The notes under the pieces: generated by a model
Database searches by the model: none
What the model was told of the DNA's origin: nothing
What the model saw: only the letters and a program-made list of their open reading frames with translations
Shown: positions 26,620 to 57,395 of the stretch, in pieces
Layout of the letters: each line of letters opens with the position of its first letter
How positions within the stretch are numbered: the first letter of the stretch is position 1
DNA from: an uncultured Clostridia bacterium
GTDB lineage: Bacteria; Bacillota; Clostridia; TANB77; CAG-508
Length of the DNA stretch: 64,000 nucleotides
Direction: 5' to 3'
Assembly: GCA_944388755.1 (NCBI GenBank)
Contig: CALXJY010000002.1
Span: 4,179 to 68,178 of the forward strand
Translations under genes and position numbers: made by a program

Positions 26620-26770
26620 ATAAAATAAACGAACACAATTATATATGCAAAATTGGTGTAAAAACAAATTAGCGGAAAGCCTGGGAAAATATTTAGTAAA
26701 ATATAGGGCTTTCCGATTTGCTAACTATTAGGAGAGTCATACTGACTTTTCTAATAGATAAAACATGTTT
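26620..26770. repeat. dispersed intergenic repeat, copy A (core GGGCTTTCCGATTTGCTAAC plus GTCATACTGACTTTTCTAATAGA module)
   Basis: Shares a core of 30 bp or more with copies at 37790-37930, 44225-44390 and 57355-57395. Left arm CGGAAAGCC can pair with GGCTTTCCG. Confidence 0.7.
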
Positions 26771-26849
26771 ATAAAATAAGTATTACTTTGATTTATTAAA
26801 ATAGAGTTTTTTCTCTTTGAGTTTTAGATTATGTAGTTATAATTTATAT

Positions 26850-29800
26850 TTATACATTGGAATGTACACTGTTTTGACTAGTTGTATTTTCTTTGTCAAT
26901 AGCTTTTTTCTCTAATTCTTTTTGTTTCAAATTATCTTTAGCTACAGTCATAAGAAGTTTAATACGATTTGTTTGATTAGATTCACTAGCTCCTGGGTCA
27001 TAATCAACAGGAGAGATATTTGCTTCAGGATATTTTTCCCTGATAGTTTTAATTACACCTTTACCAACAACATGGTTTGGTAAACATGCAAATGGTTGAA
27101 CACAGACAATATTTGGAATATCATTTTCAATATATTCAATCATTTCTGCAGTTAAAAACCAACCTTCACCTGTTTGATTTCCAATAGATAATACATCCTT
27201 TACTTTGTCTTCTAAATGCCAAATATCACAAGGCATTAAATAGTTTTTCTTTGAGCTTTGTAAAGCTAATTTAACATCTTTTTCTAATAAATCTATTAAT
27301 TTAATAGCAATTTTACTAATTTTAGATGATGTTTTATTAGTATTTAATAATTTATTAAATGTAATTTTATGTGTTGCCATAAATTTAACAAATCCCATAA
27401 AATCAGGAAGAATAACTTCAGCACCTTCTTTTTCTAAAAGATCTGCAACAAAATTATTTCCAAAAGGATGATACTTAATTAGTACTTCACCAACAATACC
27501 AACCCTAGGCTTTTTAGTACTTGTATCTAACTCAATTTTCTCAAAATCATTAACAATGTCATAAATACTTTGCTTAAACTCTTTACTAGTAGAGTCTTGT
27601 ACTAATTTTTTACACTTTTCCATCCAAGTATCAAAAAGTTTTTGTGTTTCACCTTTATTAATTTCATATGCTCTATTTTTAGTAAGCATTTTTTGCAATA
27701 AATCACCATAAACTACACACTTTATTAATTTTTCTAGTAAAGCTGGTGTAAGTTTAAAACCTGGCATTTTTTCCATACCAACAACATTAAATGATATTAC
27801 AGGAACATTAGCAAAACCTGCATCTTTTAAAGCTTTACGTATAAAACCAATATAGTTAGTAGCTCTACATCCGCCTCCAGTTTGAGACATTATTAAAGCA
27901 GTTTTATTTACATCATATTCACCTGATTGTAAAGCTTCAATCATTTGACCAGTTGTCAAAATAGATGGATAACAAGCGTCATTATTAACATATTTTAAAC
28001 CGGTTTCAACAGTATGGTTAGTACAATCTTTTAATAATTTAACATTATATCCACAAGAATTTACGCCTGCTTCTAATAATTCAAAGTGAATTGGTGCCAT
28101 CTGAGGAATTAATATTGTATAATCTTTTTTCATTTCTTTAGTAAATATTTTTTTATTAATTTCGTAATCTCCGCTTGCTTTTTCTTCTTGTTTTTGTTTA
28201 ATACGTTTATTCATACTAGCAAGAAGAGAACGAATACGAATTCTAACAGCCCCTAAATTATTTACTTCGTCAATTTTAATTAAAGTGTACATCTTATCAT
28301 AACTAGATAATATTTCCTCAACTTGGTCAGTAGTTACAGCATCAACACCACAACCAAATGAATTTAATTGAACTAGTTCTAAATTATCATGTTTTCCAAC
28401 AAAATCTGCAGCAGCATATAATCTTGCATGGAATACCCATTGGTCAACTACACGGATAGGTCTTTTAACTTCAGTTTTATCAGAAACGCTATCTTCTGTT
28501 AAGACACATAAACCAAGTGAAGTAATTAAAGTATCTATACCATGATTTATTTCAGGATCAACATGATATGGTCTACCTGCTAAAACGATTCCACGTAAAT
28601 TATTTTTTTCTATGTATTCTACAGTTTCTTTACCTTTATTTCGTATATCATTTTTAAAATTCTGATATTCATTTTCTGCTTTTTCTACAGCATCTAAAAG
28701 TTCAGATTTTGTAAAATTATATTCTTTAAATTCAGGTAATTCTAAAATCTTTTTAGTTAAATTCTTTTTATCAAAAGGTAAAAATGGGTTTATAAATTTA
28801 ACTTTATGATCTTTTAAACCTTCTACATTGTTTTTCAAAACTTCAGAATATGATATAACTATTGGGCAATTGTAGTGGTTATCAGCTTTTTCATACTCTT
28901 TTCTTGAATATGGCATACAAGGGTAAAATATAGTTGTAATTCCTTGTTCTAATAAACTTTCTATATGACCATGTGAAAGTTTGGCAGGATAACATACAGA
29001 TTCAGAAGGCATAGATTCCATACCTTTTTCATATGTTTTACGTGTGCTTTTTTCTGAAAGGATTACACGGAAACCAAGGTTTGTAAGAAATGTAAACCAA
29101 AATGGATAATCCTCATACATATTTAAAACCCTAGGGATTCCAATTGTTCCTCTTTTAGCATCTTTTTCTTCTAAAGGCTTATAATCAAATAAACGCTTAT
29201 ATTTATATTGTACTAAATTTGGTAAATCTTTATTTCCAGTAACTACTCCAGCACCTTTTTCACAACGATTGCCAGAAACATGTATTGAACCATTACTAAA
29301 TTTGTTAATAGTTAATTTACAATGATTTTCACAATTATTGCATCTAGTATGTGTTACTTTAATTTCTAATTTATCTAATTCATCTGCTTTTAAAATTGTA
29401 GAATGATATTCCATATCAAAATTTGCTTCATACTGTTCTTTTGCAAGTAAAGCCATTCCGTAAGCACCCATTAAACCTGCGATATCAGGTCTTATTACAT
29501 TTTTACCTACTATTTTTTCAAAGGCTCTTAAAACAGCATCATTATAAAAAGTACCACCTTGTACTACTATATGGTCACCTAGTGTTGAAGTATCACGTAC
29601 CTTCATAACTTTTTGTATAGCATTTTTTATAACTGAATAAGATAAACCACTAGAAATATCTCCAACTGTGTAACCTTCTTTTTGTGCTTGCTTAATTTTA
29701 GAGTTCATAAATACTGTACATCTTGAACCTAAATCAACAGGGCGTTTAGATTCAAGAGCCTCTTTTACAAATTCGCTAATTTCTAAATTTAGACTTTTGG

Positions 29801-56016: not shown

Positions 56017-57330
56017 ATGGATAGGAAAATTTATAAAGATTTGTTGAATTGGAAAAATAATAATATAGAAATGCCATTAATGGTTATTGGTGCTAGACAA
56101 GTTGGGAAAACATATACAATAAAAAAATTTTGTGAAAGAGAATTTCAAAAGTATGTATATATAAATTTATTTGAAAATGAGAATATTGTTGAATTATTTG
56201 AGAGAAAAATTTCTGTTACTGAAAAAATACGAATGTTGAAAATTATTATCAAAAGTGAACAAAATATTGATGTAGATTTTGAAAAAACAGTAATTTTTTT
56301 TGATGAAGTGCAGGAAAGCGAAGAAATAATAAGTACATTGAAATATTTTAATGAATCTGATATACATTACAAAATAATTTGTGCAGGAAGCTTACTAGGT
56401 GTTAAATTAAAAAGAATGTCTAAACCTTTTCCTGTGGGAAAAGTAGAAATACTATATATGAAACCAATGGATTTTGAAGAATTTTTAATAGCTGATAGTG
56501 GAAAAGATATGATAAACATTATAAAAGAACATTTTGAAAATAACATACCAATAGTTGATATAATGCATAATGAATTATTGTCTTTATATAGGTTATATAT
56601 TTGTACAGGTGGAATGCCAGCTTCTGTTAAAAATATTTTAGAAGTTAATAAAGATATTTTAAAATATAACAAAAAAATTCTGAGAAATATTATTGATGGT
56701 TATTTAAATGATATGAAGAAATATGTAAAAGATGCGACAGAAACTATAAGAATAGAAAATATATATAATTCTATTCCAACACAAATAGGAAATAAAAGCA
56801 ATAAATTTCAATTTAGTAAGGTTCGTAGTGGTGCAAGAAGTAAAAATTATGAAACTGCATTACAATGGTTGCTATCTAGTAATTTAGTTACTAAAATCTG
56901 TTTATTAAAAGTTCCTAAAAATCCGCCTGAAGCATTTAAAGATGAAGATATTTTTAAATTATATCTTAGTGATATTGGAATATTAAATTCTATTTTAAAT
57001 ATTAATTTGGAAGATATTATTTTAGATAAGGAGTTTATTTATAAAGGAGAATTAGCTGAAAATTATGTGCAACAACAATTAAATATCAATTTTGAAAAGA
57101 TTTATTATTGGAAAAATAACAATACCGCTGAAGTTGATTTTCTTATTCAGAATAAAGATGGTCTCATACCAATTGAGGTAAAAGCGGGAGACTCTGTTAA
57201 ATCTAAAAGTTTAAATTTGTATATGAAACAATTTAAACCTAGTTATGGAATACGAATATGTACAAAAAATTATGGATTTTCCAACGGAATAAGAACAATT
57301 CCTTTATATGCAGTTTTTTTAATTAAGTAA
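56017..57330 (+). CDS. AAA-family ATP-binding protein (AAA_14 plus DUF4143 architecture)
   Basis: Walker A GARQVGKT, Walker B FFDEVQ, 437 aa. Confidence 0.75.
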   Translation: MDRKIYKDLLNWKNNNIEMPLMVIGARQVGKTYTIKKFCEREFQKYVYINLFENENIVELFERKISVTEKIRMLKIIIKSEQNIDVDFEKTVIFFDEVQESEEIISTLKYFNESDIHYKIICAGSLLGVKLKRMSKPFPVGKVEILYMKPMDFEEFLIADSGKDMINIIKEHFENNIPIVDIMHNELLSLYRLYICTGGMPASVKNILEVNKDILKYNKKILRNIIDGYLNDMKKYVKDATETIRIENIYNSIPTQIGNKSNKFQFSKVRSGARSKNYETALQWLLSSNLVTKICLLKVPKNPPEAFKDEDIFKLYLSDIGILNSILNINLEDIILDKEFIYKGELAENYVQQQLNINFEKIYYWKNNNTAEVDFLIQNKDGLIPIEVKAGDSVKSKSLNLYMKQFKPSYGIRICTKNYGFSNGIRTIPLYAVFLIK

Positions 57331-57354
57331 TAAAAAGATAAGAGAAAAATTAAA

Positions 57355-57395
57355 ATGATTGCAAATCTTAAGGCTTTCCGATTTGTTCTTAATTG
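57355..57395. repeat. dispersed intergenic repeat, copy D (core only: TTGCAAATCTTAAGGCTTTCCGATTTGTTCTT)
   Basis: Matches the 3' core of copies A-C. Confidence 0.65.

Follow-up and report, generated by a model that had tools for sequence, protein, structure and literature searches.

A Family of Short Modular Palindromic Repeats, Probably Mobile, Behind Intrinsic Terminators in Uncultured Gut Clostridia

Repeat Copies in the Window

The window (the whole 64-kb stretch of DNA that was analyzed, from an uncultured Clostridia bacterium) contains four copies of an intergenic repeat, A to D, all on the + strand and all at the places given in the first-pass annotation. Copy A begins ~14 nt past the stop codon of an upstream M15-peptidase gene fragment and follows immediately on the final gene of a segment that resembles a conjugative element. 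Copy B carries an extra module that begins ~15 nt past the stop codon of a 727-aa ORF, copy C follows the intrinsic terminator of a 159-aa ORF, and copy D begins at the stop codon of a DUF4143 ATPase gene (Table 1). Convergent gene ends had been claimed for three of the four copies; these are A, B, and D, and copy C lies between co-oriented genes.

The 16-mer AAGGCTTTCCGATTTG had five matches in the window at ≤3 mismatches, compared with 0.56 expected, and none of 100 shuffles reached five. A covariance model of modules M1 and M2, run over the 64 kb with filters off, returned exactly the four copies, and the next score on the + strand was 17.6 bits. Copies A, B, and C are strong, copy D is decayed, and the window is without further copies; a fifth fragment is the decayed 3′ remnant of an older copy. 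This remnant is orthologous to one lying directly behind the terminator in a relative, L127, and is taken out by a 30-bp deletion in strain L052.

Copies B and C share 89% identity over 100 aligned columns, close to the ∼90% estimated earlier, whereas identity drops to 72–73% between A and either of these and to 67% between D and B. The second module common to A and C was also recovered (26725–26757 vs. 44251–44285, 84% identity) and forms a near-perfect hairpin. The long bulged hairpin built from CGGAAAGCC and GGCTTTCCG folds as the first-pass annotation described, with Z-scores of −5.6, −4.8, and −3.1 for A, B, and C, respectively. Copy D, said to have only the 3′ arm, in fact retains the loop and 3′ arm together with a 5′ arm that is present but mutated.

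Table 1. Coordinates of repeat modules and the associated host terminator in the window.
Feature	Position	Strand	Sequence or structure	Score or basis
Copy A, M1 hairpin	26633..26659	+	ACACAATT...AAATTGGTGT	Folding, covariance model
Copy A, M2 long bulged hairpin	26662..26722	+	AAACAAAT-TAG-CGGAAAGCC, 25-nt loop, GGGCTTTCCG-ATTTGCT	70.5 bits (match 26623-26724)
Solo M3 hairpin behind copy A M2	26725..26757	+	CTATTAGGAGAGTCA-TAC-TGACTTTTCTAATAG; 5′ module of second, truncated unit	
Copy B, extra degenerate M1-type module	37778..37815	+	CATTGTATAAAATTTTGACTTATGTAAAATTGGTACAC	
Copy B, M1 hairpin	37823..37855	+		Folding, covariance model
Copy B, M2	37856..37925	+	GAACAAAT-TAA-CGGAAAGCC, 33-nt loop, GGCTTTCCG-ATTTGTTC	124 bits (match 37817-37926)
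Host intrinsic terminator of 159-aa ORF	44210..44249	+	Hairpin AAGTTGTTAATAGC...GCTGTCAACAACTT plus TTTTGTTTT	−13.5 kcal/mol
Copy C, M3 hairpin	44250..44285	+	5′ module of the window's only full-length unit	
Copy C, M1 hairpin	44286..44316	+		
Copy C, M2	44317..44385	+	5′ arm partly decayed (CGGAAATTC)	96.5 bits (match 44278-44386)
Decayed 3′ remnant of older copy	44422..44441	+	TAGGCTTTTCTATTTGTTG	
Copy D, degenerate	57331..57389	+	Loop and 3′ arm conserved (57340-57389); 5′ arm mutated (TAAAAAGAT)	25.4 bits (match 57283-57389)

Unit Architecture and Folding

A full unit opens with the M3 hairpin and continues through a GCTTCGC linker, which may be absent, and the M1 hairpin to M2; units measure ~100–165 bp. 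M3 is a near-perfect hairpin (core TAGGAAA...TTTCCTA) followed by an A-run, and M1 is a small hairpin. The long hairpin of M2 has the foot GAACAAA/TTTGTTC, a bulge of 3 nt in its 5′ arm, and an A-rich loop of ~30–32 nt. The opposite placement of the second module in A and C had been taken as a sign of circular permutation. Given the order M3-M1-M2, the M3 after copy A instead opens a second, truncated unit, comparable to the tandem dimers in L008 and L121.

The inner stem of M2 varies between subfamilies, yet the architecture is retained and the differing stems still pair (CGGAAAGCC/GGCTTTCCG, GAGGCATGA/TCATGCCTC, GCGGAC/GTCCGC, and a variant of 24 bp). That the type-1 M2 arms look invariant is in part a product of the search, whose patterns required those arms. 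M1 covaries, with changes on both sides of the stem in 17 cells, a value matched by none of 500 shuffles. Among 575 stem cells, 558 were Watson–Crick, four G:T, and seven A:C, with no excess of G:U, and this predominance of Watson–Crick pairs reads as a DNA-level signature. As to terminal inverted repeats of the kind that classical MITEs share with a transposase-encoding IS, the 5′ arm of M3 in type 1 has ACAAnnnGGAAAGnC in common with the reverse-complemented 3′ arm of M2 (~12/17, by eye); this shared arm sequence is absent in subfamilies 2 and 3. On the minus strand, the linker contains a GCGAAGC mini-hairpin motif.

No reading frame stays open across family members, and the minus-strand ORFs of 53–116 aa in copies from the MAG CANRSN01 are not conserved, so coding was rejected. 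Inspection of the + strand across subfamilies revealed no conserved promoter, and promoter-like sites were not in excess. A minus-strand −35/−10-like pair inside M2 (TTGACA or TTAACT, 18 nt, TAAATT) is weak, being good in one subfamily only.

Distribution in Related Genomes

The first-pass annotation had proposed an uncatalogued dispersed family, and the outcome that it named as refuting this, no further copies and no conservation in relatives, was not borne out: copies recur in no fewer than 10 additional MAGs or metagenome assemblies of low-GC Clostridia. A pattern scan of genome contigs gave at least 13 near-identical matches in CANRSN01 and also detected the family in L033, L043, and L046. 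The pattern used, TAWRGGCTTTCCGATTTG, is one base off the window's own variants (ATAAGG, TTAAGG, and TAGGG) and for that reason missed the window's own genome; the family is thus under-counted and the counts are lower bounds. Metagenomes contributed 21 loci, and the covariance model brought out extra subfamilies; one genome can contain several subfamilies. Nine full CANRSN01 copies were 91.8–97.5% identical, with flanks at ~51%, and ~40 copies outside the window adjoin housekeeping genes (e.g., rplT, folD, mnmG, a tRNA). The carriers are uncultured low-GC gut Clostridia, all of their genomes being from uncultured organisms, and several copies lie at contig ends.

No Rfam family matched anywhere in the window at the gathering threshold. 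At a permissive threshold nothing credible was recovered for copy B, a full CANRSN01 unit, or the L007 spacer; the best sub-threshold matches were to unrelated families (e.g., snR46, 23.6 bits vs. a threshold of 43). A phage or plasmid origin was rejected: blastn searches of plasmids and phages gave no match, and the 34 viral-contig matches to the 16-mer were all chance occurrences in unrelated, mostly GC-richer DNA. The core sequence was not found in the literature searched. The family is new, its general kind is familiar, and its landing site is unusually strict.

Position Behind Intrinsic Terminators

Full copies sit directly 3′ of the T-tract of host intrinsic terminators, in the same orientation and behind unrelated co-oriented genes. 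Of 28 full-length copies, 17 passed a strict adjacency test for a hairpin of −5 kcal/mol or stronger plus a T-tract whose end coincides with the junction, compared with 81 of 3000 random positions (2.7%). The upstream gene was co-oriented with the unit in 27 of 32 cases, and the downstream gene was co-oriented in 21 and opposed in 15. Copies were found on the G-rich strand at 19 of 22 loci, a tendency inseparable from gene-strand bias.

Copies A, B, and D lack M3; all three start within ~25 nt of the stop codon upstream, and a separate terminator is absent. The M2 inner stem is 9 bp long with six G–C pairs and is followed by AUUUGUUCU. Standard intrinsic terminators have a GC-rich stem, a loop of 3–8 nt, and a U-tract directly behind the stem; the M2 loop is ~32 nt, so the scan did not call it. 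In form, M2 resembles a large-loop terminator.

A structured RNA was among the possibilities raised in the first-pass annotation. Such an RNA would be transcribed by terminator read-through or from its own promoter and act as an sRNA or 3′-UTR element, for example by stabilizing the transcript, giving termination a second chance, or sequestering a protein, and its multiplicity would reflect function rather than mobility. Consistent with such a role are the three hairpins with compensatory changes, folds more stable than shuffled sequence, the prevailing co-orientation with the upstream gene, the conservation between genomes of the M2 loop and the single-stranded linkers, and the reported transcription of a similar Bacillus repeat, bcr1 (PMC3184786). 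The lack of an Rfam family even at permissive thresholds and of a promoter conserved across subfamilies on inspection argues against it. The stems are 97% Watson–Crick, and because G:T is no commoner than A:C, RNA-level selection on one strand is disfavored. The units also lie downstream of a complete terminator, and therefore most transcripts should end before reaching them. With presence/absence differences between close relatives, tandem copies, and truncated copies (see below) also weighing against it, an RNA family seems unlikely.

Gain, Loss, and Rearrangement Between Relatives

Three filled-versus-empty comparisons of close relatives were obtained, and in each the difference began exactly at the end of the T-tract. 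The first was copy C, whose landing-site terminator occurs without copy C in L127. The second was a solo M3 present in L142, L143, and L146 and missing from L144, L148, and L149; it was yielded by the search that covered the rplT site of L043, where relatives are too diverged for base-level comparison. In the third, L031 against L151, L152, and L153, the common terminator ends in CTTTTT and the element begins right behind it. An empty site was also sought for copy A, which all eight of the strains retrieved carry.

No repeated flank indicative of a target-site duplication was found in ~38 copies or in the filled-versus-empty pairs. Duplication of TA or TTTAT is not supported: TA lies behind the 3′ end in about one-third of copies, and TTTAT occurs at the 5′ junction only, where it is the T-tract plus AT, with no copy behind the 3′ end. 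None of the filled-versus-empty pairs gave a clean 3′ junction.

Units were also found behind the hairpin-plus-TTTGTT end of existing units, producing tandems and nested remnants; in L008 and L121 the tandem junction consists of GATTTGT followed directly by TATACAATAGG. Copies degenerate in three ways: they are truncated, their arms mutate, or a module is replaced. Site B shows such a replacement, with one M2 type swapped for another between identical flanks (L095 and L096). Importance had earlier been attached to copies B and C bracketing the abrB...spoIIR block, a reading that is not supported: L127 has the same gene block, but there site B is occupied by a different hairpin module and site C by no more than a remnant. 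Because the block is kept while the modules differ, a composite transposon spanning B to C was rejected.

The swap at site B also invites the reading of a host-domesticated, REP/BIME-like DNA element, a binding site or backup terminator at gene ends whose copies spread and became uniform mainly through recombination or gene conversion instead of transposition. Such an element would account for the mosaic, module-swapping organization, the location at gene 3′ ends and between convergent genes, and the M3-less copies where a terminator is expected, and the conserved foot and bulge geometry of M2 may suggest recognition by a protein. Conversion alone, however, would hardly place copies at an exact junction with many unrelated terminators, near-identical copies occur at unrelated loci, and M2, with its ~32-nt loop, was not called as a standard terminator. 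The GTAG and CGTC tags that define REPs are absent, and the units are four to five times REP length, so we consider this origin improbable, if slightly less so than an RNA family.

Comparison With Known Repeats and Mobile Elements

The closest counterparts are other small repeats of Gram-positive bacteria. The Firmicute chromosomal repeat bcr1, from group A Bacillus cereus, is a ~155-bp non-coding two-stem-loop unit with compensatory changes, present in tens of copies, differently distributed between close strains, flanked by 5-bp TTTAT direct repeats, and without a known transposase (PMC3184786; PMC6542083). Our family is like it in size, independent stem-loops, lack of coding capacity, copy number, and strain variability, but has no duplication in place of the TTTAT flanks and obeys a terminator-abutting rule not reported for bcr1. 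No sequence similarity to bcr1 was detected by blastn against plasmids. Of the pneumococcal repeats, BOX elements are modular, boxA-boxB(n)-boxC, with modules that may be missing or multiplied, and SPRITEs are AT-rich and terminator-like, with AAAA/TTTT ends, lie near CDS 3′ ends with enrichment between convergent genes, and have no known target-site duplication or transposase (PMC3049150). The family resembles BOX in modularity and SPRITE in its terminator-like character and gene-3′-end location, yet differs from both in sequence, three-hairpin architecture, host lineage, and the exact, fixed-orientation junction behind a separate host terminator. REPs are palindromic units of 20–40 bp with a GTAG or CGTC tag at one end (PMC3733652), whereas the units here, of 100–165 bp, end in ATAyAWTAGG... 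and ...GATTTGTTC.

Among mobile elements, the IS200/IS605 family has subterminal hairpins at both ends, makes no duplication, and inserts 3′ of a short specific sequence. With M3 at the 5′ end, M2 at the 3′ end, no duplication, and a T-tract junction, the repeat is compatible with derivation from such elements, but these features are not specific to them. It differs from IS200/IS605 and from REP/REPIN-RAYT systems in that the M3 and M2 hairpins are unalike in subfamilies 2 and 3, and in that the search for a Y1/HUH transposase was negative both for the window and, by a crude motif scan, for ~368 kb of carrier-genome DNA. Pfam searches of the window likewise revealed no transposase, reverse transcriptase, or autonomous parent. 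Compared with classical MITEs, the family is similarly short, non-coding, multi-copy, and polymorphic for presence, but lacks a target-site duplication.

Group IIC introns are reported (Robart, Seo and Zimmerly 2007) to use intrinsic terminators as a safe haven, inserting in one orientation just past the stem-loop and its T-tract. The repeat resembles them in landing site alone and does not belong to that family: it is ~160 nt long and has no ribozyme domains (5′ GUGYG, domain V), RT ORF, or Rfam group II match. This reported preference and the position of copy A might suggest pieces of some larger element already known, for instance the end of an IS, what is left of a group II intron, an att site from a prophage or ICE, or tRNA-like DNA. 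None of the copies, however, is overlapped by an Rfam match, be it to a group II intron, a tRNA, or another family, an ORF interrupts none of the collected units, searches of plasmids, phages, and viral contigs gave nothing, and the copies beyond the window stand beside housekeeping genes, which makes such an origin very improbable.

A Probable Non-autonomous Mobile Repeat

Of the three options offered in the first-pass annotation, namely a MITE-like element, a structured RNA, and a family of protein-binding sites, the MITE-like one fits best, given the unrelated flanks, presence/absence between close relatives, and tandem dimers. We therefore interpret the family as short modular palindromic non-coding DNA repeats, probably non-autonomous and mobile or recently mobile, of the BOX/SPRITE/bcr1/MITE kind. 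Insertion would be targeted to the hairpin and T-tract rather than merely tolerated there, and the element may move as hairpin-forming DNA helped by a trans-encoded enzyme. Because there is no target-site duplication and hairpins lie at both ends, a single-stranded DNA/HUH-type transposase is the most natural guess for the mobilizer. Once in place, M2 with its U-rich tail could serve as a substitute terminator. The conservation of the M2 loop and linkers counts against this interpretation, since it is not evident why a purely selfish palindrome would need it. With neither a target-site duplication nor a clean 3′ junction, the copies may alternatively have spread by recombination or gene conversion rather than transposition.

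There is a small chance, somewhat above that of a REP/BIME-like origin, that the family represents a separate class of mobile element, devoid of ORFs, which specifically recognizes a hairpin plus T-tract in one orientation, propagates into its own terminator-mimicking 3′ module, and is mobilized by enzymes of a family that has so far had no link to the targeting of terminators. Recognition might then use the A-run by the 5′ hairpin, complementary to the T-tract, in a guide-like pairing, and mobilization might proceed via an RNA or single-stranded DNA intermediate, the latter hinted at by the minus-strand GCGAAGC motif of the linker.

Small interspersed repeats leave their mark on 3′ UTRs, on termination, and on the rearrangement of genomes, and to our knowledge the way in which most Gram-positive families (BOX, SPRITE, and bcr1) move is unknown. 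The exact, orientation-specific terminator junction, the coexisting subfamilies, and the clear insertion polymorphisms described here provide a sharp handle on repeat movement. We know of terminator recognition by an element only from group IIC introns; the cognate enzyme, if found, would define how a ~160-nt element recognizes terminators and could also explain similar orphan repeats. For the uncultured gut Clostridia that carry the family, its model improves intergenic annotation and flags likely assembly break points, and its copies provide strain-level markers.

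Four Copies of a Repeat in the Window

The four look-alike stretches that the first-pass annotation reported as a new dispersed intergenic repeat (copies A to D) are present as described, all on the + strand. The 16-mer AAGGCTTTCCGATTTG has five matches at ≤3 mismatches in the window vs. 0.56 expected, a count reached by 0 of 100 shuffles. A covariance model of the M1 and M2 core (two of the hairpin modules that form the unit), applied to the entire window with filters off, returned exactly these four copies, with scores of 124 bits for B, 96.5 for C, 70.5 for A, and 25.4 for D; the next-best + strand match scored 17.6 bits. 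Copies B and C, which had been put at about 90% identity, are 89% identical over 100 columns, copy A is 72–73% identical to B and C, and copy D is 67% identical to B. The second module said to be common to A and C is also real, a near-perfect hairpin with 84% identity between the two copies. The folds of A, B, and C are far more stable than those of shuffled sequence (z-scores of −5.6, −4.8, and −3.1, respectively). The observation of a four-copy repeat family is confirmed, and its earlier interpretation is partly supported. Ordinary RNA genes of the window (50092–50186, 6844–6931, and 48546–48618), a small SRP RNA (63 bits) and tRNAs, do not overlap any repeat copy.

Anatomy of the Unit

The full unit, defined from copies in other genomes and taken in the 5′ to 3′ direction of the upstream gene, is ∼150–165 nt long and consists of M3, an optional linker, M1, and M2, in that order. 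M3 is a hairpin with the core TAGGAAA...TTTCCTA and variable outer and apical parts, followed by ATAAAA; the linker contains GCTTCGC; and M1 is a small hairpin in which GCACACAAWTTT and AAAWTTGGCRCA enclose the loop. M2 has a foot of GAACAAA(T) on the 5′ side and TTTGTTC(T) on the 3′ side, a 3-nt bulge on the 5′ arm, and an inner stem of 6–14 bp, then an A-rich loop of ∼30 nt (9 nt for the variant at locus L095) and the return arm. Copy C is the sole full-length unit in the window, where all copies are without the linker. Copies A and B have no M3, copy B carries an extra, degenerate M1-type module, and in copy D the 5′ arm has been lost to mutation. The M3 behind copy A starts a second, truncated unit, and head-to-tail dimers, in which GATTTGT joins TATACAATAGG, occur at L008 and L121; the supposed circular permutation is thus a tandem arrangement.

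Coordinates of repeat modules and neighboring features in the window
Feature	Position	Strand	Remark
Copy C M3	44250–44285	+	
Copy C M1	44286–44316	+	
Copy C M2	44317–44385	+	
M3 behind copy A's M2	26725–26757		start of second, truncated unit
T4SS_pilin-domain proteins, two	9371–10180, 15488–18346		
TraG/VirB4-like ATPase	13506–15464		
Multi-domain cell-wall hydrolase, 1678 aa	19314–24350		
Integrase C-terminal fragment	1407–2075		beside tRNA
tRNA	2408–2480	minus	beside integrase fragment

Conservation of the Stems

Covariation, the check proposed with the first-pass annotation, was found in M1, where 17 cells were changed on both sides (0 of 500 shuffles reached 17). The M2 and M3 stems differ among subfamilies with pairing kept, and the type-1 M2 arms owe part of their invariance to the search patterns used. 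Among 575 stem cells, 558 were Watson-Crick, 4 G:T, and 7 A:C. That G:U pairs are not in excess on the “sense” strand favors stems kept as DNA palindromes over selection on one RNA strand. No reading frame was conserved across members, and neither inspection nor a promoter scan revealed a conserved promoter. Conservation of the M2 loop and linker from genome to genome counts against a purely selfish palindrome.

Distribution and Subfamilies

No family matching the unit was present in Rfam at gathering or permissive thresholds, blastn against 72,556 plasmid and 50,697 phage records gave zero matches to the repeat, and no occurrence of the core sequence was found in the literature searched. Matches of AAGGCTTTCCGATTTG to viral contigs were dismissed as chance. 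Species-representative genomes were scanned with a pattern one base off the window's own variants, so that the matches are a lower bound; this gave at least 13 in CANRSN01, an uncultured Clostridiaceae MAG, and, among the matches listed, one copy in each of two other Clostridia MAGs. The scan also recovered a short-loop version of the repeat from a rabbit-gut MAG. The remaining matches listed were in unrelated genomes, and their number was about the ∼35 expected by chance.

A two-arm pattern recovered 21 true loci from several metagenome assemblies, all with 23–33% G+C, and the covariance model added copies missed by the patterns, including further M2 subfamilies. The inner stems of these subfamilies are GAGGCATGA/TCATGCCTC, GCGGAC/GTCCGC, or a 24-bp perfect stem; the foot, bulge position, M1, and M3 are kept across them, as are the linker and large M2 loop in all except the 24-bp variant. 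Contigs identical to the window are found in several ENA assemblies, and the organism is uncultured.

Position Relative to Genes and Terminators

In 27 of 32 scorable cases the unit and its upstream gene point the same way; for the downstream gene, 21 cases are co-oriented and 15 opposed. Full-length units adjoin the T-tract of a host-specific terminator hairpin. Under a strict definition, which required both a hairpin at least as strong as −5 kcal/mol and a T-tract that ends at the junction, such a terminator preceded 17 of 28 units vs. 81 of 3000 random positions, and several of the 11 others show a visible hairpin with a short spacer. The upstream genes are mutually unrelated (rplT, folD, tRNA, DUF4143 ATPases, and others). 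Copies without M3 (A, B, and D in the window; L006, L008a, and L116 elsewhere) start at most ∼25 nt past the stop codon of the upstream gene, and a separate terminator is absent.

Several neighboring features were observed in passing. Window positions 9371–26606 (and 1407–2480) look like part of a conjugative element, with copy A directly behind the last gene of the segment. This gene, for an M15_4 peptidase, is split into two overlapping ORFs (25946–26386 and 26346–26606) and is paralogous to part of the large hydrolase gene (20612–20804; 71% DNA identity); it probably arose as a frameshifted duplicate, and all eight strains retrieved share the split. DUF4143/AAA_14 ATPase genes (56017–57330 in the window; 4119–5321 in CANRSN01 locus L007) immediately precede a repeat copy, copy D in the case of the window, a pairing that, at 2 of ∼40 sites, may be coincidence. 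The divergent promoter region between the window's DUF4143 gene and an ABC-transporter operon holds three tandem 33-nt units, TATAAAGGTTATCTATGAAAAATGCAAAAGTTT (55866–55964; 79–85% identical), which may be operator repeats. Between two repeat copies, L007 has a ∼600-nt ORF-free stretch (5495–6100) with ∼30-nt inverted repeats (∼5603–5632 and ∼5898–5930) and zero Rfam matches, which may be another small element. At L031 (6830–6975), a type-2 unit is truncated inside the M2 loop exactly at the start of the dprA ribosome-binding site (…CTAAAAGG joined to AGGAAAAAATAAAAATG), and perhaps the A/G-rich loop was recruited as the Shine-Dalgarno region or became fused to it.

Gain and Loss Between Relatives

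Flanks of the copy C site are ∼97% identical between the relative L127 and the window. L127 carries the same terminator with a 32-nt 3′ remnant right behind it. In the window, a full unit and a further ∼23 nt separate this remnant, by now decayed (44422–44441), from the T-tract. A 30-bp stretch that includes the old remnant (window positions 44421–44450) is missing from L052, a strain of the same species as the window, through a deletion between short AATA(T/C)TT repeats. Three loci (L142, L143, and L146) have a solo M3 and A-run immediately 3′ of the terminator T-tract, and three with identical L20 protein (L144, L148, and L149) are without it. Behind folD, CANRSN01 has a type-1 unit and a truncated type-2 unit that begin exactly after the T-tract of the shared terminator; in relatives whose FolD is 93% identical, an ordinary spacer of 55–85 nt occupies this place. 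The copy B site in L095 and L096 has a different M2 type within identical flanks. The nine full CANRSN01 copies are 92–97.5% identical, with flanks at ∼51%.

Possible Route of Movement

Placement at the end of terminator T-tracts is orientation-specific, the same site is used repeatedly with the newer copy nearest the terminator, and existing units have further units behind their hairpin-plus-TTTGTT end. The target would be a hairpin followed by a T-tract, the unit would move as hairpin-forming DNA via a trans-acting enzyme, and M2 would be able to serve as a replacement terminator. No target-site duplication was found in the copies and filled/empty site pairs inspected, which is compatible with a retro-type route or with the IS200/IS605, IS110, or IS91 types and speaks against classical cut-and-paste movement as in DDE-transposase MITEs. 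Neither a transposase nor a reverse transcriptase was seen in the window or in a crude scan of ∼368 kb of carrier-genome DNA.

The bases on the two sides of M3 are complementary to each other (T-tract vs. A-run), even where the 5′ side is not a T-tract, as in L104 (GACTGTTC/GAACAGTC) and L110 (GTTC/GAAC); positions are ∼1700–1722 in L104, ∼3833–3880 in L110, and ∼700–742 in L115. This could provide a longer stem or a guide-like pairing between unit and target. The linker GCTTCGC, in its minus-strand form, reads GCGAAGC (e.g., L028 1303–1312, L115, L110), and the variants GCGGAGC and GCGCAGC keep the motif GCGNAGC, an extraordinarily stable DNA mini-hairpin (PMC13037366).

Relation to Known Families

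Among known repeats, the family is closest to bcr1 of the Bacillus cereus group, compared by description, and to pneumococcal BOX and SPRITE. bcr1 is described as ∼155 bp long, with stem-loops kept by compensatory changes and TTTAT direct repeats on its flanks (PMC3184786, PMC6542083). BOX is modular, and SPRITE is terminator-like and found at the 3′ ends of genes, with both its duplication and transposase unknown (PMC3049150). Membership among REPs was rejected, as the GTAG/CGTC tag is absent and the units are too long (definition in PMC3733652). The present family is distinguished by its exact junction with terminators and by an architecture of three hairpins with swapping among subfamilies. 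With group IIC introns it has the landing site as its sole common feature. On these comparisons we file it among the small interspersed repeats, as a new family, widespread among uncultured Clostridia, of a familiar general kind.
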